Below, piece after piece: positions 2,569 to 11,703 of a stretch of 30,336 nt of DNA (its first letter is position 1; each line of letters starts with the position of its first letter). Source of the stretch: a virus. Its lineage: Duplodnaviria; Caudoviricetes. The notes under the pieces were generated by a model. The model was given only the letters and a program-made list of their open reading frames with translations, did no database searches and was not told the origin of the DNA. The stretch lies in the IMG/VR virus record IMGVR_UViG_3300002092_000138, positions 1-30,336 of that record. One strand, given 5' to 3'. The translations under genes were made by a program, and so were the position numbers.

Positions 2569-2721
2569 ATGGCGAAAGCTCCTGTAACCACTGTGGGCAA
2601 ACCGGCGGTCACTCCCACAGTCAAACCGATGGCAGCAAAGACCGTGAAGCCCGCTTATAGCCCGATTGGAAACTTGGGGGCTTTTGCCCATCCGGCAAAG
2701 AAAAAGACGAAGACGAAATGA
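2569..2721 (+). CDS. Small Lys/Pro-rich protein (NLGAFAHPAKKK motif)
   Basis: ATG 1 nt after the previous stop; stop overlaps the next ATG (ATGA). Confidence 0.7.
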   Translation: MAKAPVTTVGKPAVTPTVKPMAAKTVKPAYSPIGNLGAFAHPAKKKTKTK

Positions 2722-3470
2722 TCGAGAACCTTGTTCATTTCATCTATCCCGCATGGGACAACACGCGCCCGCTGTCACTGGTGAATTATGTGGCGGTGGC
2801 GCGTGCCAAGGCTATCCAGAAGCCGGATAAGATTTTATTCTGGATCGACAAAGAGCCAATACAAAACGAGTGGTGGGAACGGATCAAATCTCTTGTGGAA
2901 GTCCGGCATATTGAAATGTCGGGTGAATACGAAGGGGTAAAGATTGAATGGCCGCAACTGCAATCGGATGTGACGCGGCTGGAAATTCTGATTAAACATG
3001 GTGGTATTTATCTTGATACGGATATGCTGCTGTTGAAGCCGCTGGACGAGTGGTTTCACTTCAATCGTTTTGGTTTGTGTTTCGAACCCGGCAATGCCTC
3101 GATCTGCAATGCGTTGATGATGGGACCGCCGGACTCGGCGTATGCGAAAGCCTTGCTGCGTGAAATGCCGGAAGCGTTGAAGTCTGAAACATGGGCGGAT
3201 AGCGGGGTGTTGCTGCCGTTCCGTGTGGCGCAAGAAAACCCTTACGACAGCATGGTCTTGCCCTATTACACGTTCTGTCCGTTTGATCTTAAAACAGCTT
3301 ATATGTTTGAACCCGATCAAAAAGCGTTTTGTGAATTTCAGACAACGCACTCCAACGCGGCGCATGTTTATGAAACTTATTGGAGAGACGTGGTGAAAAA
3401 TGTCACGCGGGATTTTGTGAAGAACACGGATTGTTTCTTCTCTGATCTCGCTCGGGGTACCCTTGATTGA
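2718..3470 (+). CDS. DXD-motif glycosyltransferase (GT32 / Gly_transf_sug-like)
   Basis: IENLVHFIY N-terminus, QSDVTRLEILIKHGGIYLDTD signature, ICNALMMG and AAHVY motifs. Confidence 0.9.
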   Translation: MIENLVHFIYPAWDNTRPLSLVNYVAVARAKAIQKPDKILFWIDKEPIQNEWWERIKSLVEVRHIEMSGEYEGVKIEWPQLQSDVTRLEILIKHGGIYLDTDMLLLKPLDEWFHFNRFGLCFEPGNASICNALMMGPPDSAYAKALLREMPEALKSETWADSGVLLPFRVAQENPYDSMVLPYYTFCPFDLKTAYMFEPDQKAFCEFQTTHSNAAHVYETYWRDVVKNVTRDFVKNTDCFFSDLARGTLD

Positions 3471-3982: not shown

Positions 3983-4624
3983 ATGGATGATTTATATGAC
4001 ATTCTTGGTGTCAAACGGGATGCAGAGTCCGATGAAATCAAGAAGGCTTATCGACGCAAAGCGAAGAAGGCGCACCCCGATGCCGGTGGATCGGCAGAGG
4101 CATTCGGTGCGCTGACACGCGCCTATGACTGCTTGTCGGACGACGAGAAGCGGGAGCGGTATGACCGCACGGGCGATGTCGATGACAAATCCGCCGATCA
4201 TGAAATGCAAGAAGCATTGGCGGTCGCAGTCGGCGCGGTCAATGCGGTGATCGGGATGATCGAACAGCGCCACTTGCGCATCGAAACATTCGATGTGGTT
4301 GGCGACAGCATCAAAACACTGAACGCGCAAATCGGTGACGCGGATAACAAGATCAAAGAATTTACCCACAAAGGTGAAAAGTTTGAAAAACTGGCAGAGC
4401 GGTTCAAAGTTAAAAAGGGAAAACCGAACCGTTTGAAAAACATTCTCATAGCGCAAGCAAAAGACCTTTTCCGTCAGGCCGAACAAACCAAACGGACAAA
4501 GAGAATTTTTGAAACGGCGCTTGAGATTTTGAAAGATCACAGTTTCGATTTCGAAGCGGGCGGGGCGCAAGAGGACGGGGTTCCGGCGTTTATGTTTAAT
4601 GTGGGTCCGGCGCAATGGCGGTAA
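3983..4624 (+). CDS. J-domain (DnaJ-like) protein with coiled-coil C-terminus
   Basis: DLYDILGVKRDAESDEIKKAYRRKAKKAHPDAGG..F..LTRAYDCLSDDEKRERYDRTG, with an intact HPD motif. Confidence 0.93.
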   Translation: MDDLYDILGVKRDAESDEIKKAYRRKAKKAHPDAGGSAEAFGALTRAYDCLSDDEKRERYDRTGDVDDKSADHEMQEALAVAVGAVNAVIGMIEQRHLRIETFDVVGDSIKTLNAQIGDADNKIKEFTHKGEKFEKLAERFKVKKGKPNRLKNILIAQAKDLFRQAEQTKRTKRIFETALEILKDHSFDFEAGGAQEDGVPAFMFNVGPAQWR

Positions 4625-6501
4625 AATCAACCAAGTGGGTGAAGCTGTTTAACAACTTCATCGGCGACATTCGCATCTCGTCCAAGGAAGTGTCGTCACA
4701 AGACGAACGGGGCACGAAGCTGGAACTGTGGCAATCGCAGCGGCGCTTCATTCATGAAGTCGGGTCCGGCTTGGATCGCGGCGTGCATAAGTTCAACTGT
4801 TTGAAATCGCGCCAGCTTGGCGTGACCACGGTGTCACTTGCCATTGATGTGTTCTGGTTGGCACTTCATGCGAACCTGATCGGATGCCTTGTGACGGACA
4901 CCGAAAAGAACCGCGAAGCAAACCGCATGTTGTTGCAAAAATATGTGGAGTCGTTTCCCGACGGTTATTTCGGCGACACGTTCAAGATCATCAAGAACAA
5001 CCGCTCCATGCTGCAATTCTCGAACGGGGCACGATTGGATTTGCTGGTCGCAGGGGTCAAAGACAAAGGCACGTCATGGGGTGAAGGTGTCGGCTATGGT
5101 TTTGCGCATCTGACCGAAGTCGCGGCCTATGGATCAGCCGAAGGTTTGAAATCTCTGGAAGAAGGGTTTGCCCAGTCCAACCCCGACCGCCTTTACATTT
5201 ACGAGTCCACCGCCAAAGGCTTCAACCATTGGCGGTCGCGCTATATCGACGGGTTGAATGACCCGCTGACGGCGCGGTCGTTCTTCATCGGCTGGTGGGC
5301 GGGTGATACCAACATCATCGCCCGCAAAGACCCGCGCTTCCTGCAACATGGTCTGCACCCACCCGAATTCGAGGAACAGGAGTTGATTGATTTTGTGGCC
5401 CGTGAATATGGCCACAAGATCACCGCCGAGCAGCTTGCATGGATCAGATGGAAAACAGAGACCGCAGGGGCCGAACAAACGCTTCTGGATCAGAACCAGC
5501 CGTGGACCGCAGATCAAGCCTTTGTGCAGACCGGCTATTCGTTCTTCCAGACGCGTGTCATCACCCAAGACATCAAGCGCATCGAGGAGGAGGGGCTTCC
5601 CTACCGCGCTTACCGCTACATCGTGGATGGTGACTTCTTCAACTTCCGTATGGTGGAACTGCATCCGGGCGAGGACGACCCCCGCGACATCGAGTTGAAG
5701 ATTTGGGAAGAACCCGAGGACGAGGGTAAGTATGTCATCGGCATGGACCCTGCCTATGGGCGTAACGATCATAAGGACCACCACGTGATCTCCGTATGGC
5801 GGTGCTATGCCGACAGGATGGTGCAGGTCGCCGAGTATTGCACCGCCGATGTGGAAGCCAAGCACGCCGCATGGGTGCTGTTCCATCTGGGGTCGGCCTA
5901 TAAGGACTGCCTCATCAACCCCGAAGTGGGTGGACCGGGGGCGCTGGTCTTGGGCGAATTTGACCACCTGCGGCAATTGCTGACGATGGAGTCCAATGTT
6001 TCGCGCATACAGGCGCGTGGGTGGGAGGATGCGGCGGCGCACGCCCGCATGTATCTGTATAAGCGGCCGGACTCGATGGGCGCGGGTTATGTGATCGGCT
6101 TTGCAACCACATGGTCAACCCAGTCGGTCCTGATGCACCAGTTGCGCGGCTCGTATGTTTCGAACGAATTGGTGATCCGGTCAAAAGCCCTCTTGCAAGA
6201 GATGGCCCTTGTGATCCAAGATGACGGGCATATTGGTGCGCCGGAATCGCGCGACGAAAATTGCAAAGACGACCGTGTGTTTGCAATGGCCTTCGCCGTC
6301 CGTGCGTGGCGCGACTGGACACGCAAGGAAATGATGGCTCTGGGGCAGACCTACGATTTCGTGCAAGAGCAACTCAAGAACAAAGACAAACCTTTGGTCA
6401 CAACTGTCAATCGCATTGTTTTTAACTATCTAAGGACGATGGAAGACGCGGCAGGTGAAGAACCCGACCCCGAACCGTGGAGAACAGAATATGGATTATG
6501 A
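4615..6501 (+). CDS. terL: Terminase large subunit
   Basis: Walker A-like LKSRQLGVTT, Walker B AHLTEVAAY, coupling motif YESTAKG, RNase H-like nuclease motifs YVIGMDPAYG and KDDRVFAMA. Confidence 0.93.
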   Translation: MAVKSTKWVKLFNNFIGDIRISSKEVSSQDERGTKLELWQSQRRFIHEVGSGLDRGVHKFNCLKSRQLGVTTVSLAIDVFWLALHANLIGCLVTDTEKNREANRMLLQKYVESFPDGYFGDTFKIIKNNRSMLQFSNGARLDLLVAGVKDKGTSWGEGVGYGFAHLTEVAAYGSAEGLKSLEEGFAQSNPDRLYIYESTAKGFNHWRSRYIDGLNDPLTARSFFIGWWAGDTNIIARKDPRFLQHGLHPPEFEEQELIDFVAREYGHKITAEQLAWIRWKTETAGAEQTLLDQNQPWTADQAFVQTGYSFFQTRVITQDIKRIEEEGLPYRAYRYIVDGDFFNFRMVELHPGEDDPRDIELKIWEEPEDEGKYVIGMDPAYGRNDHKDHHVISVWRCYADRMVQVAEYCTADVEAKHAAWVLFHLGSAYKDCLINPEVGGPGALVLGEFDHLRQLLTMESNVSRIQARGWEDAAAHARMYLYKRPDSMGAGYVIGFATTWSTQSVLMHQLRGSYVSNELVIRSKALLQEMALVIQDDGHIGAPESRDENCKDDRVFAMAFAVRAWRDWTRKEMMALGQTYDFVQEQLKNKDKPLVTTVNRIVFNYLRTMEDAAGEEPDPEPWRTEYGL

Positions 6502-6739
6502 AATAGAAACCGGAAAATGGTATGAAATACCAGAGAACGATGGTGTATATCCCTTCGATGGTCGTACAGTGTATCTGACGGACAACGGATCGGACGTGCA
6601 TATCGGCTATTGGCGCAAGACACGAACCTACGACGCAGAAAACGTGAAGTGGGTTGAAGAAGGTTTCTGGGCGCAACGCAATGCAGGCGGGCAACGTTTG
6701 GGTATCGCGCCCAATGCCTTCATGTTTTTCGAGGAATAA
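6491..6739 (+). CDS. Hypothetical protein (Trp-rich)
   Basis: ATG 6491 overlaps the end of terL; tight packing with the next gene. Confidence 0.7.
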   Translation: MDYEIETGKWYEIPENDGVYPFDGRTVYLTDNGSDVHIGYWRKTRTYDAENVKWVEEGFWAQRNAGGQRLGIAPNAFMFFEE

Positions 6740-6742
6740 ACA

Positions 6743-7327
6743 ATGGTGTATTTAGGGTATGAAAACGTGGAAGACGACGGTTATCTTGCACCTAAAAAAT
6801 TTAGGATCAGCTATCGCTGCGATTTGTGTGGGCATGAGTACAAACGCACCTATAAGGCGATTCCCAAAAACGACCCGCCTTGCCCAAGCAAAGCGTGCTC
6901 GACCAAACAGGAAATGGAGTCGCTCAAAAAGCAAATCGAAAACCTGACGCGCATGGTTGCAGAGGGCGCGGCCCCCGCACAGACGGGCAAGAATGTTCGG
7001 GTGAAAGCGGTTGACCAGACCGCGCAGATTGTCATGGAAGATTACAACATGACCGATCTGAAAGATAACATCCGGCCCGGCGAAAATGTCGCACCGAAAT
7101 TACCCGGCGTTCAACAGCAGATGGCCGATAATTATTTTGGTGGGGGCTCGATGAAGGCCGCAGGCATGAGCAAGAAGCAAACCGAACTTCTCGGTCGGCG
7201 CGCGATTGCAGGGGCCTATCGGAACATGGCTGTCGCACCTAATGCGATCTTGCCGTCGGAAGTGCGCAGCGGCCAAGCACCGCTGCGCCAGATTGGAACC
7301 GAAGTCATCAACGAACGTAAACGTTGA
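6743..7327 (+). CDS. Zinc-ribbon-containing phage protein
   Basis: YRCDLCGHEY...PPCPSKAC Cys pairs followed by a coiled coil; GAGGA RBS. Confidence 0.75.
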   Translation: MVYLGYENVEDDGYLAPKKFRISYRCDLCGHEYKRTYKAIPKNDPPCPSKACSTKQEMESLKKQIENLTRMVAEGAAPAQTGKNVRVKAVDQTAQIVMEDYNMTDLKDNIRPGENVAPKLPGVQQQMADNYFGGGSMKAAGMSKKQTELLGRRAIAGAYRNMAVAPNAILPSEVRSGQAPLRQIGTEVINERKR

Positions 7328-9112
7328 TTACTTCTTTTTGCCCGAGTGGGTTTGCTGCTTGAGGGCCATTTCTTGCGCTGCGGCTTCGGCTCTTGCCACG
7401 TCGCGGCGCATAATGCTTGCGCGTAATTCTTCTGGCTCTGGTGCGTCCACGTGATCCACCAATTGCGATGGGGTCATTGCGCCGATCTTCACCAAGTTGA
7501 ACGCAAGTTCTTTCGACTCCATCGAGAAGGCCGGCGACGACGAATGGGAGTCCACGGTCAGCGTTACATCTTCCGGCAGATCAGCAAAAGTAAACGTGAC
7601 AGGCACCGTGCCTTTCGCGGGTGGCATCAACATGCTGTTCTCGCCCGCAATAGCGTCCGACTCCACACCCGCTTGTTCTTCGGGCACCCACGCAATCAAC
7701 TTGCGGTCGATGTGTGCGCGCGCCAGATCAAGCATTGTTGCGCCAATCGCTTCCACATCACGCTCGACCAACAACGCGCGATCTTTAAAGCGGGGTGAGA
7801 ACATACGCACCAATGTTTCCGCGTGCGAAGCAGAACGAACACCCGCTTCACCTTGACCTTTGGCAATCGGAGGCAGGCCCATCATTTCATCGAACATGCG
7901 CTCGTATTCATGCAACGAGTGCCACAATGTTTCGGGGATTTGAACGGTGTCGCGCTCGATTTTCGCGTTGGGGTTTTGGTCTGTCCAATACCCACCCGGC
8001 TTGTTGAAGCGCGAAAGTGCGGTCTGGTTCACACCGGTCGAACCAACGAATTTTGTCGGCGGGTCTTCCTGTTTACGCAAGAGACGATTGATGCCTGTCA
8101 GGCGCGAGTTAATTGCTTCTTGCAACAGAACCAAGCGCGATACTTCGGACAAGCCCCAGAAGTAATCTTCAACAGGATTGACGCAGATGGTGTTGAACGG
8201 GTGATCCCCGCGCAAGCATGGCTCTGTCTGGCGTGTGTCCGTGTTGTAAGAGAAGATGTTTTGCGTCATGTATTTTCCGGCAATCAGAATGTCATTGCCG
8301 ATCAGTTGGAATGTGGCCCAGTCGCCGCGACGATCATCCCACACCCAGACTTCATCCATTTCCAGCATCGAGGCTTCGACAGCCGGATCAATCGACGGGC
8401 GAGGTTGTGACATCCAATCCACAAGACCGCGGCTCGGGTTTGGTGGGGCGCTACCAGCAGGTTGAAACGGATATAAACCCCCCGTCACGATGTTCATTGC
8501 AGAGGCCGACGCATCCTTCATCCCGCCCGTTGTCGAGCGCATGTAAGCCTTGGCCCTGTCAAGCAAGTCACGCTCGTCAGGGCGATCTTTGACAAGGTTT
8601 CGGAACTGCGAAGGGTTGATAAGAAAACGATGCGTAAACGCTTCCATATCAGGGTCAAGTTTTGTGTGGTTTTCATGCAGCACGCCGAAGTTTTCCGGCT
8701 TCACAATCTGGCTCTTGTATTCCTTGTTCACCATCGTTGTTTTGATGATGCCGATACCGCGCCGGAGACTGCCTGCGACACCTTGCGAGATCAGATTATC
8801 AATCCCCGCTTGGCGCGCCATTTTCCGGATGTGTCCAGCCGCCGCACGACCTTTCGATTGGTTGACCACATTGGGGATGTCAGGGTCGGTGACTGCAAAT
8901 CGCAATGACAGTGGGGAAAAGAGCAGGGATTCGAGGTCGTCGAGCGACGAGAAGATTTTGTTGTACATCGCCGGAGCAGAAGGGTCGGCGGAACCTGCTG
9001 TTGCGTAGGACTCATAGAACGCACCTCGGTTTTGTCGGGCTTGCCTCGATGACATGCAAACATCTGCAATGTTACGGGCAAATTGTTCAATGTCGCGTGT
9101 AGGTATTAGCAT
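7328..9112 (-). CDS. Portal protein (P22-like), inverted relative to the other structural genes
   Basis: 594 aa; YNKIFSSLDDLESLLF, GIGIIK, HPFNTICVNPVEDYFWGLSEVSRLVLLQEAINSRL, FDEMMGLPPIAKGQGEAGVRSA follow the P22-like portal pattern; lies between terL and scaffold/capsid. Confidence 0.85.
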   Translation of the reverse strand: MLIPTRDIEQFARNIADVCMSSRQARQNRGAFYESYATAGSADPSAPAMYNKIFSSLDDLESLLFSPLSLRFAVTDPDIPNVVNQSKGRAAAGHIRKMARQAGIDNLISQGVAGSLRRGIGIIKTTMVNKEYKSQIVKPENFGVLHENHTKLDPDMEAFTHRFLINPSQFRNLVKDRPDERDLLDRAKAYMRSTTGGMKDASASAMNIVTGGLYPFQPAGSAPPNPSRGLVDWMSQPRPSIDPAVEASMLEMDEVWVWDDRRGDWATFQLIGNDILIAGKYMTQNIFSYNTDTRQTEPCLRGDHPFNTICVNPVEDYFWGLSEVSRLVLLQEAINSRLTGINRLLRKQEDPPTKFVGSTGVNQTALSRFNKPGGYWTDQNPNAKIERDTVQIPETLWHSLHEYERMFDEMMGLPPIAKGQGEAGVRSASHAETLVRMFSPRFKDRALLVERDVEAIGATMLDLARAHIDRKLIAWVPEEQAGVESDAIAGENSMLMPPAKGTVPVTFTFADLPEDVTLTVDSHSSSPAFSMESKELAFNLVKIGAMTPSQLVDHVDAPEPEELRASIMRRDVARAEAAAQEMALKQQTHSGKKK

Positions 9113-9126
9113 GTCATCCCATCCTA

Positions 9127-9145
9127 TCGTTTTGATATAAAACGA
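9127..9145. promoter_or_regulatory. Palindromic operator-like site in the divergent portal/head intergenic region
   Basis: Perfect TCGTTTT-gatat-AAAACGA. Confidence 0.5.
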
Positions 9146-9162
9146 CTTTTTTCAATTCTATA

Positions 9163-9191
9163 TTGACAAGGCCGTTCATATCAACTTAATC
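9163..9191 (+). promoter_or_regulatory. Putative sigma70-type promoter of the head operon
   Basis: TTGACA (9163-9168), then 16-17 nt, then CTTAAT/TTAATC, in an AT-rich intergenic stretch. Confidence 0.55.
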
Positions 9192-9203
9192 TTTGTGTGC
9201 ACC

Positions 9204-9227
9204 GTCGGGATGGTAAGCTCTCCCGAC
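9204..9227 (+). other. 5' leader hairpin
   Basis: GTCGGGA-10 nt-TCCCGAC. Confidence 0.55.
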
Positions 9228-9252
9228 ATCCCTAGCAACAAGGAGTTTTACC

Positions 9253-9318
9253 ATGTTTAACGTTGACACTCTCATCGAAAAGCGTGGCCGCAAGGCAAAG
9301 CGTAAAGGTCGTAAGTAA
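9253..9318 (+). CDS. 21-aa basic micropeptide MFNVDTLIEKRGRKAKRKGRK (absent from the ORF track)
   Basis: Strong AAGGAG RBS at 9240-9245, 7 nt before the ATG; TAA at 9316-9318. Confidence 0.75.
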   Translation: MFNVDTLIEKRGRKAKRKGRK

Positions 9319-9329
9319 TTTACGCTTAG

Positions 9330-9359
9330 GGGAGTGGGGGTGTAACAACCCCCGCTCCC
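9330..9359 (+). other. GC-rich 12-bp hairpin without U-tract
   Basis: GGGAGTGGGGGT-gtaaca-ACCCCCGCTCCC (one G-U pair). Confidence 0.65.
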
Positions 9360-9381
9360 TCACAATCAAAGGGTTTAGATC

Positions 9382-9801
9382 GTGGTATTACCATTACCAA
9401 CTCCCGGTGCTGGCGCACCTCCCGGAATGGGGCCTCCTCCCGCCGCTACTGGCGCGGGACCGGCAGCTATGCCTGGTGGAATGGGCGGCTCTGTCCAACA
9501 CGGTATGGCGGCTTTGAAAGTCGGCCTAGAGGCTTTGCAAAAGGCCCTCCCTCAATTACCCCTCGGTTCCACACTCCACCAAGCTGTTCTCAAAGCCTTG
9601 ACCGACATCGGCAAGCAAATGGAAAAACAAGGCGGCAGTGGAAACGATCAAGCTGGTGCAATTCAACAGCTTGTAGATATGGCCCGCACGGCCAAAACGC
9701 AACCCGCAATGGCAGGTATGATGCCGGGCGGGGCACCTCCGGCCGGAGGCGCGCCCGGTGGAGCACCTCCACCACCCCCAATGCCACCCGCAGGAGCATA
9801 A
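9382..9801 (+). CDS. Pro/Gly-rich hypothetical head-module protein
   Basis: Helical core (ALKVGLEALQKALPQLPLGSTLHQAVLKALTDIGK) between low-complexity ends; GTG start uncertain. Confidence 0.75.
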   Translation: MVLPLPTPGAGAPPGMGPPPAATGAGPAAMPGGMGGSVQHGMAALKVGLEALQKALPQLPLGSTLHQAVLKALTDIGKQMEKQGGSGNDQAGAIQQLVDMARTAKTQPAMAGMMPGGAPPAGGAPGGAPPPPPMPPAGA

Positions 9802-9811
9802 GGAGTTTCAA

Positions 9812-10024
9812 ATGTCTCAGGGTAAAATTCCAACACCATACGTCAATGACGTTAAAGAAGATAATTCAACGATGCAGTATGTCGCGTTCGATACGATGGG
9901 TATCGGCGCACGCAAATCCGGCATCCCGTCTGGTAATACCAATGGTATCAAAGGCTTGGATCATGTGGGCATGGATGCCTCGCATGGCGCAGGCAAGACT
10001 CCTTCCACAGGCGGTAGGAAGTAA
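9812..10024 (+). CDS. Hypothetical head-module protein (70 aa)
   Basis: TAAGGAG RBS before ATG 9812 (MSQGKIP...). Confidence 0.75.
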   Translation: MSQGKIPTPYVNDVKEDNSTMQYVAFDTMGIGARKSGIPSGNTNGIKGLDHVGMDASHGAGKTPSTGGRK

Positions 10025-10027
10025 GCC

Positions 10028-10615
10028 ATGACAGCCACCCCCGAACAAATTGCTTTGATGCGTTCCAAAGAGCTTATCGACGCTCTGTGGAATGACGGCG
10101 AAGTAGGTCAAAAAATTCAAGCCACGGCAAAAGCCAAGTGGAATGACATTAAAACGACCGAGGACATACTCAATCCAATTGTGCAGCCGCATGTTGCGAA
10201 GATGCAGCAGTTGGAAAAAAAGTATGAGGAACTTCTAAAGGAGCGCGAAGAAGAAAAACGCGCGACTGACGATGAAAAGGCAAGGCGTAAGCTGGAAGAA
10301 CAGCTTGATGACGCTCGTCGCAAATACAATCTGACTGAAGAAGGCTTCAATCAGATGGTCGAGCGCATGAAGTCAACAGGCAACTATTCCGACGCGGAAG
10401 CTGCGGCAGCTTATGTCGCCAGCAAGGCACCGCCTGCCAAAGTTGCGGGACCGACTTGGGGCCCACAAGACCTCGATTTGTTCGGATCGAAGTCACATAA
10501 CGACGATCTTGTGCAGCTTCATCGTGATCCGATGGGCTACATGGATTCTCAACTGACCGAATTCGTTAGAGACCCTGATAAATACGTCCGGGACACTCTC
10601 GGTAATGCGGCTTAA
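10028..10615 (+). CDS. Putative capsid scaffolding protein
   Basis: Charged coiled coil (LEKKYEELLKEREEEKR...), directly upstream of the capsid gene. Confidence 0.7.
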   Translation: MTATPEQIALMRSKELIDALWNDGEVGQKIQATAKAKWNDIKTTEDILNPIVQPHVAKMQQLEKKYEELLKEREEEKRATDDEKARRKLEEQLDDARRKYNLTEEGFNQMVERMKSTGNYSDAEAAAAYVASKAPPAKVAGPTWGPQDLDLFGSKSHNDDLVQLHRDPMGYMDSQLTEFVRDPDKYVRDTLGNAA

Positions 10616-10632
10616 TAAGAGGATTTAGCTAA

Positions 10633-11703
10633 ATGGCCTATCCAACATCACCAGTATCAACACTGACGGGGAGTGGTATCACGCCCTCCGGTGCGTTAGG
10701 CGCCCAGCTTGCCGCACTGACCCGGCGTGCCTTCATCCCGTCAGTTTACGTCCAAATCTACCAATCACATCCTCTGCTTTCTTTGTTCATGTCGAACGCT
10801 AAGGCAGCACGAGGCGGTGTCAGCCAGATTACGGTTCCAGTGCAGGGTTCATCTTTCGTGAACTTCAACTGGGGTTCGTTTGCTGGTGACTTCCCGATGC
10901 CAACCGATGCGGCAGCGATCCAGAACGCACAGTTCTCGCTGAAACTCGGTATGGTGCCGATTGGGTTCTTCGGAATGGAGTCCATCATCCAGTCGTCCGA
11001 AGTCGTTATTCCGAAGCTGCGCGCGGTTATGTCCGACGCGGCTGTCGTGATTAAGCAGGCTTACGCACAGGCGTTGTATTCCAACAACTATGCTAACTCG
11101 CAGGTGTGGGACTCTCTCACCCAAGCCTTTGACGATGGCACGAACGTTCCTTCCTATGGGGGTATCTCCCGCACACCCGGTTCGTTCTGGTCAGGTCAAT
11201 TGATTACCAACACTGGCGCAGCTGCAACAACCCGTGTCGGTATGGCACAGTTGTTGACCCGCGTACAGGCTGGTGCAGGCGGCGAAGCCCCTGATTACGC
11301 TGTCATGAACCCCGCAAACTGGGCTGAACTGATGAGCGACTTCATGTCTCTCGAAATGTTCACCACGCGGCCTCGGTCGATTTACGACAAGGATGACATG
11401 GTAAACGCAGGCTTCCGCGCTATCCGAGTGCTTGATACACCGATCTTCCCAGATCCGTTCTGCCCACTCGGAACCTGCTTGATGGTCAACTCGCGCTATA
11501 CGGGCCTGTATATGTCCGAATACGCTCCGATGACCTTCTCCGGCTTCGAGAGCCAAATCCCCGTCGGTCAGATTTCCGACATCGGGGTTCTGATCTCTTG
11601 CGCCGATCTCGTTTGCGCCAAGCCGTCCTCCGGTGCTCAAGTAACGGGCATCACTGGGGCAGCATGGCCGAATGTTCCCGGCACATATCCAGCAGTAATC
11701 TAA
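10633..11703 (+). CDS. Major capsid protein (HK97-fold type)
   Basis: 356 aa; LAALTRRAFIPSVYVQIYQSHPLL, DDGTNVPSYGGISR, PDYAVMNP, GFRAIRVLDTPIFPDPFCP, LMVNSRY; position after the scaffold. Confidence 0.88.
   Translation: MAYPTSPVSTLTGSGITPSGALGAQLAALTRRAFIPSVYVQIYQSHPLLSLFMSNAKAARGGVSQITVPVQGSSFVNFNWGSFAGDFPMPTDAAAIQNAQFSLKLGMVPIGFFGMESIIQSSEVVIPKLRAVMSDAAVVIKQAYAQALYSNNYANSQVWDSLTQAFDDGTNVPSYGGISRTPGSFWSGQLITNTGAAATTRVGMAQLLTRVQAGAGGEAPDYAVMNPANWAELMSDFMSLEMFTTRPRSIYDKDDMVNAGFRAIRVLDTPIFPDPFCPLGTCLMVNSRYTGLYMSEYAPMTFSGFESQIPVGQISDIGVLISCADLVCAKPSSGAQVTGITGAAWPNVPGTYPAVI

Follow-up and report, generated by a model that had tools for sequence, protein, structure and literature searches.

The portal gene of a short-tailed phage, represented here by a 30,336-nucleotide stretch of DNA (IMG/VR record IMGVR_UViG_3300002092_000138, positions 1 to 30,336; hereafter the window), is encoded alone on the strand opposite to the terminase and head genes, and this arrangement is a fixed trait of a clade whose deeper relatives have the canonical order. 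Few features of tailed-phage genomes are as conserved as the terL-portal-scaffold-capsid order, which serves for positional annotation, and across a whole phage family one essential gene has here departed from it more than once. The explanation that we favor, with modest confidence, is that the portal gene flipped in the ancestor of the clade, became fixed, and probably forms a separate transcription unit whose reverse promoter is interleaved with the capsid promoter, which would link portal supply to head assembly and not to the terminase operon.

The window is a 30-kb piece of the genome (52% complete) and is tiled by plus-strand genes, with a sole gap of more than 76 nt at 7328-9252. This gap contains a minus-strand ORF of 594 codons (7328-9112) whose stop directly adjoins that of the facing gene (plus-strand TGA at 7325-7327, reverse-strand TTA at 7328-7330), confirming the zero-gap TGA/TTA junction at 7327/7328 in the original prediction. 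The ORF is open in 86 of 88 relatives and has stops in the other two. Eleven other long minus-strand ORFs in the window lack a PHROG match, and when eight of these were compared with relatives, the six with matches there proved to be interrupted by stops in roughly half of those relatives or more (from 7 of 15 to 3 of 3). The portal is the sole conserved minus-strand gene of the window, and its description as the only credible one stands. Five plus-strand ORFs lying within the portal gene have no family match and are broken in most relatives, and there is therefore no conserved antisense gene at this position.

The window protein has no match in Pfam, PHROG, NCBIfam or PDB-chain sequence searches, and its identity came only from its fold and from distant homologues. 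An AlphaFold model built with 95 homologues (pLDDT 80.6) has as its best PDB match the SU10 portal (7z44; E 2.5e-17, TM 0.55, 14% identity), and all of the PDB fold matches listed are portals or portal-tail complexes, placing the model in the portal fold with its wing, stem, clip, crown and barrel helix. In a viral structure library the best match is an annotated portal (TM 0.74), and the Pfam family SU10_portal (PF23899) is matched by 11 of 26 homologues at E<=0.01, three of the 26 scoring above the cut-off. The ORF is a podovirus portal of the SU10/N4/P22 type; the earlier label of P22-like is broadly right, but the SU10/N4 type is closer. Exactly one copy is present in each of ten complete related genomes (57-67 kb), as counted by a search that detects this portal family only. 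The case is a warning that a single ORF running against the strand of a virion gene cluster may be a core gene overlooked by Pfam and PHROG.

The surrounding genes are all encoded on the plus strand. At the left end are a small serine recombinase recognized by family searches (49-642), two tandem paralogous small genes without a family match, the second with an internal repeat (799-1778), and an Acb2/Tad1-type hairpin protein (1798-2076; PF24729, E 2.8e-10) that is likely an anti-defense sponge. A DXD glycosyltransferase gene upstream of terL (2718-3470) and a DnaJ-domain gene overlapping the terL start (3983-4624) are both patchy among relatives. The terminase large subunit gene terL (4615-6501; phrog_2, E 2.4e-16), which converges on the portal, is followed by g94 (6455-6739), a small conserved gene, and by g194 (6743-7327), a conserved gene with a putative Cys-rich product of 194 aa for which the searches found no protein family. 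To the right of the portal are the conserved Pro/Gly-rich g139 (9382-9801), a putative scaffold gene assigned by position and size with no fitting family match (10028-10615), and the major capsid protein gene MCP (10633-11703; phrog_9953, with NF033394 above cut-off). No tRNA genes were found, and an Rfam scan of 6500-10700 gave one chance match only. Very deep tiny contigs collect at ~10319-10374, within the putative scaffold gene, in all four DNA runs described below, and probably reflect a low-complexity word common to other organisms. Nine genome-bin records that could indicate a host carry conflicting labels (Rhizobiales, Methylocapsa, Xanthobacteraceae, Acidobacteriaceae, Victivallales, Opitutales and others), and none was accepted.

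Comparison with related genomes, proposed at the outset as a check, identifies the inversion as a clade trait. Among 81 loci with portals more than 45% identical, the portal is opposite to terL in 53 of 53, to MCP in 61 of 61 and to g194 in 64 of 64, and among 26 distant loci it is co-oriented with terL in 22 of 22 and with MCP in 14 of 14. At a portal identity of at least 46.5%, a threshold chosen after inspection of the tree, there are 115 loci, some of them contigs fetched twice, and none of the 113 that are informative has a co-oriented neighbor. The main inverted clade comprises 47 lineages including the window (support 100; portals 47-100% identical), all of them inverted, and trees of terL and MCP recover the same clade. 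Outgroups and many lineages at intermediate distance have the canonical order terL-g194-portal-head operon, with g194 preceding the portal and overlapping its start in 10 of 23, and 26 of 78 scored representatives are canonical, a proportion biased toward the query as sampling began from the window protein. On this phylogeny the canonical terL-portal-capsid order is established as ancestral, and of the two histories that had been offered for the orientation, a past inversion is the correct one.

The inversion has also arisen elsewhere in the family. Two inverted contigs, L143 and L144, nest within the canonical lineages L145, L150, L151, L156, L177 and L216 (59-75% identical), and their DNA is collinear with that of L150, L216 and L220 save for the portal. 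A tree constrained to place them in the main clade is rejected (p-AU 4.6e-7; LG+G4 on 38 rows chosen from 89, with the group named after the tree was seen). The phylogeny in this way demonstrates a second, independent flip of the portal alone, represented by two near-identical contigs (99% identity). In L114 and L120, g194 is flipped along with the portal, and in L121 and L128 terL is turned too, such that g194, portal and terL lie on one strand; in L128 this unit is divergent from the capsid gene, a P2-like layout that was reached independently in a podovirus (L121/L128). The portals of L122/L179, L214 and L158 are also inverted. With the backbone of the tree unresolved, L122/L179 and L158/L214, and likewise the block inversions, could share a single origin with the main clade, which the tests do not reject (p-AU 0.30 and 0.15). 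The minimum number of changes in portal versus head direction is four on the 89-row tree and five on the 38-row tree, and the trees argue firmly for two portal-alone origins plus at least one further rearrangement. In every flip for which the head operon is visible, the portal unit lies head-to-head with it.

The start of the head operon has the same components in both layouts: a promoter-like site, a hairpin, a strong Shine-Dalgarno sequence (SD) and a short K/R-rich ORF. In the window the predicted sigma-70-type promoter is on the plus strand at 9163-9192 (TTGACA at 9163-9168, 18 nt, TAATCT at 9187-9192), and the -10 is correctly spaced from the TTGAC anchor in 36 of 41 main-clade lineages. 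The capsid operon is predicted to have its own promoter in both layouts and would therefore be independent of transcription through the portal gene, making the flip survivable. The leader hairpin of the head transcript (9204-9227, plus strand) does not reach significance by itself in the window (z -0.9) and has no Rfam match, but similar hairpins recur in relatives, where the 3' arm frequently complements the SD, pointing to alternative folds or to an operator. The first gene of the operon is a 21-codon K/R-rich micro-ORF with a strong SD (9253-9318, plus strand), retained in 44 of 44 main-clade, 22 of 23 canonical and 7 of 8 other inverted lineages. It is present in 73 of 75 lineages scored, sometimes twice, at ~9-21 codons and below normal gene-calling limits, as counted with a filter that selects for basic tails and an SD. 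Its peptide is protamine-like, and is perhaps a DNA-condensing core peptide or a regulatory leader. A strong GC hairpin without a T run follows (9329-9360, plus strand; z -4.4, none of 200 shuffles as good), and hairpins recur at this position in relatives. In the canonical lineage L139, the interval from the portal to the head leader holds, on visual inspection, an HNH-like ORF and also a tRNA-like sequence. The conserved promoter, leader hairpin and basic micro-ORF of the head operon, together with the recurring clade-wide layout, go beyond the original prediction.

A candidate portal promoter is predicted within this same region on the minus strand (9155-9184; -35 TTGATA at 9184-9179, -10 TAGAAT at 9160-9155), interleaved with the head promoter. 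It is the best match in an independent promoter scan of the window (10 of 12), in which the total number of sites is no higher than in shuffles. In the main clade the reverse -10 lies just behind the head -35, and a conserved A that opens the reverse -35 lies inside the head spacer. This combination occurs in 26 of 41 main-clade lineages versus 0 of 15 canonical ones, and the reverse -10 in 19 of 30 versus a shuffle mean of 4.8 and maximum of 13; the comparison sets one clade against scattered lineages, and the counts are not independent. The reverse promoter is absent from the remaining 15 of the 41 main-clade lineages and is seen in neither of two other inverted lineages with a TTGAC anchor; in that count the TTGAC taken as anchor in L143 and L090 was not the right one. 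L143 likewise lacks the signal. A scan of 52 ORFs from the non-structural region of one complete relative revealed no phage RNA polymerase, in keeping with promoters of the host type. The separate transcription that had been envisaged for the portal is in this way supported by its opposite strand and by a candidate promoter specific to the inverted clade, the promoter itself being a prediction.

At the other end of the gene, a terminator-like hairpin on the plus strand (7301-7339; arms 7301-7313 and 7322-7334, then five T) straddles both stops, with a folding energy of -16.5 kcal/mol that is equaled in 7 of 200 shuffles. It would stop transcripts of the terL operon, and its T run is the reverse strand of the terminal Lys codons of the portal. 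The window junction has no strict terminator in the portal direction. By a strict test, terL-direction terminators occur in 17 of 50 inverted lineages, compared with 4 of 31 canonical ones and 7 of 150 control windows; this test superseded a looser one that admitted too much (33 of 44, with 55 of 132 among controls). Perfect two-way hairpins lie between the stops in most members of a group with 72-77% identity. In 11 of 44 inverted lineages the two stops are 0-3 nt apart, but the portal-g194 junction is an insertion site and the distance ranges from 0 to 8.2 kb with varied cargo. In L037 (11807-14795), L043, L088 (5286-7403) and L124, extra genes follow the inverted portal on its own strand, among them a conserved 157-aa ORF and a Cys-rich 91-aa ORF, neither with an NCBIfam match, and long Gly/Ala-rich proteins. 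In L122 (5447-13670) and L179 (1578-7730) the inverted portal is separated from g194 by a block of 6-8 kb that apparently consists of sugar-nucleotide and radical-SAM-like genes, as judged by eye from their translations.

These observations suggest how the favored arrangement may have come about and might work. In the ancestral order the portal would have come at the end of the terL unit, often in overlap with the preceding gene, and, located upstream of the head promoter, would have been out of its reach. A single inversion would then have placed the 5' end of the portal ~50 nt from the head -35, as a unit of its own. The two host-polymerase promoters would share ~40 bp and be mutually exclusive, such that the portal would receive a minor, co-timed share of initiation from one control region, with the hairpin at the facing stops in the window insulating it from terL read-through. 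A portal comprises 12 copies, compared with hundreds of capsid subunits, and an excess of P22 portal disturbs assembly. The portal joins scaffold and coat at the start of procapsid assembly, as described in PMC5529062, and a co-timed minor share of initiation would suit a protein that does so. A weak portal SD was also considered as a means of keeping the dose low, but this fails in the window, where the ribosome-site energy is -6.9 kcal/mol for the portal versus -5.8 for MCP, even though the clade medians are weaker for the portal (-4.8 versus -6.75); a low portal dose is therefore unsupported by the SD. That the arrangement is advantageous is the least certain step.

The explanation that competes most closely, and to which we give a somewhat less than even chance, has the same transcription mechanism and differs on selection alone: the flip would be a tolerated, neutral rearrangement. 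With a promoter of its own at the head operon, and with strong promoters prone to backward leakage, a flip would be cheap; the flanks would be hot spots for recombination and insertion, and the promoter and terminator would have been tuned later to restore the old output. The many lineages that are still canonical (in a query-biased sample), the variable cargo between portal and g194, and the other block flips (L114/L120 and L121/L128) are all consistent with this, as is the account in bioRxiv 10.1101/2020.01.31.928960 that divergent transcription from ordinary promoters is common. It accounts less readily for the lack of any reversion to canonical order within 47 lineages spanning 47-100% identity, for the head-to-head outcome of each flip with a visible head operon, and for the retention of a clade-specific motif before the start codon. 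A selected and a tolerated flip are not separable from sequence, but the close canonical sisters of the inverted lineages provide natural controls (L143 versus L145, L150 and L216, with portals 72-75% identical), and make it testable why the terL-portal-capsid order is conserved and how the portal is dosed against the capsid.

A stronger form of the selective explanation is doubtful. In this form, repeated selection would have moved the portal under the capsid promoter region, where mutually exclusive interleaved promoters and an operator with 5-nt periodicity would fix both the portal:capsid ratio and the timing at initiation, a stoichiometry device that is perhaps under feedback from an assembly protein or from the basic leader peptide.

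The periodic element consists of three AT dinucleotides, spaced 5 nt apart, immediately upstream of the portal ATG (9113-9127, minus strand), containing both an SD-like AGGA and a -10-like TAGGAT, and it is present in 29 of 45 main-clade lineages but in 0 of 24 canonical and 0 of 7 other lineages. In L105 and L106 the motif is duplicated ~42 nt apart upstream of the portal. It lends itself to two readings, an SD and the -10 element of a leaderless message, and we consider it unlikely, if worth entertaining, that the portal mRNA is leaderless or nearly so, with the TAGGAT 8-9 nt before the ATG as the true -10 and the AT motif as an operator for a phage regulator acting in both directions. In 37 of 50 sequences a TAnnnT is located 7-10 nt upstream of the ATG (shuffle mean 3.8), the variants TACTAT and TACAAT retain -10 quality and lose the SD, and the spacing between ATG and TTGAC falls into clusters of 30-33, 47-52, 60-68 and 93-94 nt that are approximately in phase with the helix. 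Against this, the best-conserved base is a G (92%), the forms TGGGAT or TAGGAA in some lineages fit an SD better, the window has no -35 at 17 nt, and no regulator was identified.

It is improbable that convergent read-through from terL represses the portal by antisense RNA or polymerase collision, as had been suggested. The short stop-to-stop gaps of some lineages would allow it, as would the lack of a strict terminator in most inverted lineages (33 of 50), but terminator-like hairpins lie exactly at the junction in the window and in the 72-77% identity group, and many relatives have 0.3-8 kb of other genes there. The hairpin and T5 in the window weaken the suggestion even with strict terminators in a minority of inverted lineages, and the junction hairpins, the two-way hairpins and the 0-8.2 kb insertions together make antisense control from terL unlikely as a shared purpose of the arrangement.

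We regard it as very improbable that separate control serves to delay or limit a protein detected by host immune sensors. An Avs4-portal complex (8dgf) is among the fold matches and the window encodes the Acb2/Tad1-type sponge, but nothing ties orientation to host defense, and terminase and capsid are also sensed by host immunity.

That the inversion is an assembly error or a recombinase-driven switch, both raised in the original prediction, is largely refuted. In four freshwater DNA runs, three of which may be the source samples, single unitigs span 6000/6036-10144 and cross both junctions at a depth of 105-271 without joints, assembled contigs of this kind being prone to drop rare variants. 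The 208 loci with a portal of at least 400 aa (the set grew to 223 after wider searches, some of them repeat fetches of one contig) form 89 clusters at 90%, none with mixed orientation. The original prediction had found no matching recombination sites at the two ends, and this holds more widely, as inverted repeats across the two junctions of 46 loci are not above shuffles (mean best match 9.46 versus 9.43 of 14). A 16-nt inverted pair (7318-7333/9313-9328) was rejected as a recombination site, as recombination there would also turn the head promoter around, and one of the arms is simply a Lys-stop codon pair. No link was found between the serine recombinase at 49-642 and the portal flip, and recombinase genes adjoin both layouts (8 inverted and 7 canonical loci). 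Invertases of the Gin/Cin/Hin type are small serine recombinases that act on inverted sites at the ends of a nearby segment and give both orientations in close relatives or in one population, and of these features only the nearby small recombinase was found here. With a serine recombinase 6.7 kb from the portal and the possible loss of rare variants from contigs as the points on its side, and the joint-free unitigs in all four runs, uniform clusters, absent junction repeats and indifferent recombinases on the other, a switch or error is scarcely credible.

Among known phages, the portal most resembles that of SU10 in fold, length and a long C-terminal helix, and the window also encodes an SU10-type adaptor downstream. 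In SU10 and N4/P22-type podoviruses the gene order is co-directional, in contrast to the inverted portal of the window. No cultured close relative was found in a set of 50,697 phage records, and the nearest GenBank records are the Manatee Spring phages MW202825 and MW202753 (28% identity in the portal, 37-39% in MCP and 34-35% in terL). MW202825 has the canonical terL-portal-capsid order and MW202753 has all three matches on one strand, and these genomes are 34-36 kb in length, versus 57-67 kb for the complete relatives of the window. Morons of the HK97 type are likewise opposite-strand units with their own promoter and terminator inside a late cluster, but are accessory and patchily distributed, unlike the portal gene here, an essential core virion gene that is the only one of its kind and is present once in all ten complete genomes.

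The bidirectional promoters of Warman et al. (bioRxiv 10.1101/2020.01.31.928960) have overlapping -10 elements and starts 7-29 bp apart, and share with the window the production of divergent starts from overlapping promoter DNA. In the window the predicted -10 elements (9187-9192 on the plus strand and 9155-9160 on the minus strand) do not overlap, the predicted starts are ~50 bp apart, and the reverse -35 lies in the forward spacer, unlike the Warman type.

The closest parallel in layout is with the P2-like phages (P2 and the Burkholderia phages KS5, KS14 and KL3), in which, according to PMC3091744, the portal gene Q is on the strand opposite to the scaffold and capsid genes O and N, in a unit that is head-to-head with the head operon. 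The portal of the window similarly points away from scaffold and capsid, and its transcription probably does so too. In the P2-like phages terL (P) and the portal (Q) are together with P first, whereas in the window the portal is flipped alone and collides with terL, which is opposite in all 53 close loci. A shared divergent terL-portal unit is seen only in L128, where both are opposite the capsid gene, and probably in L121, which has the same portal-terL order, the reverse of that in P2. P2 belongs to the myoviruses and its late promoters depend on the Ogr activator, whereas the family of the window are podoviruses with consensus -35 elements, and, unlike in the P2-like phages, the layout varies and recurs within the family. 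A literature search with narrow terms, covering titles and the starts of abstracts, found no description of a lone inverted portal. A portal set against the capsid operon together with terL is already known from the P2-like phages (PMC3091744); what appears to be new is a portal that has flipped alone.
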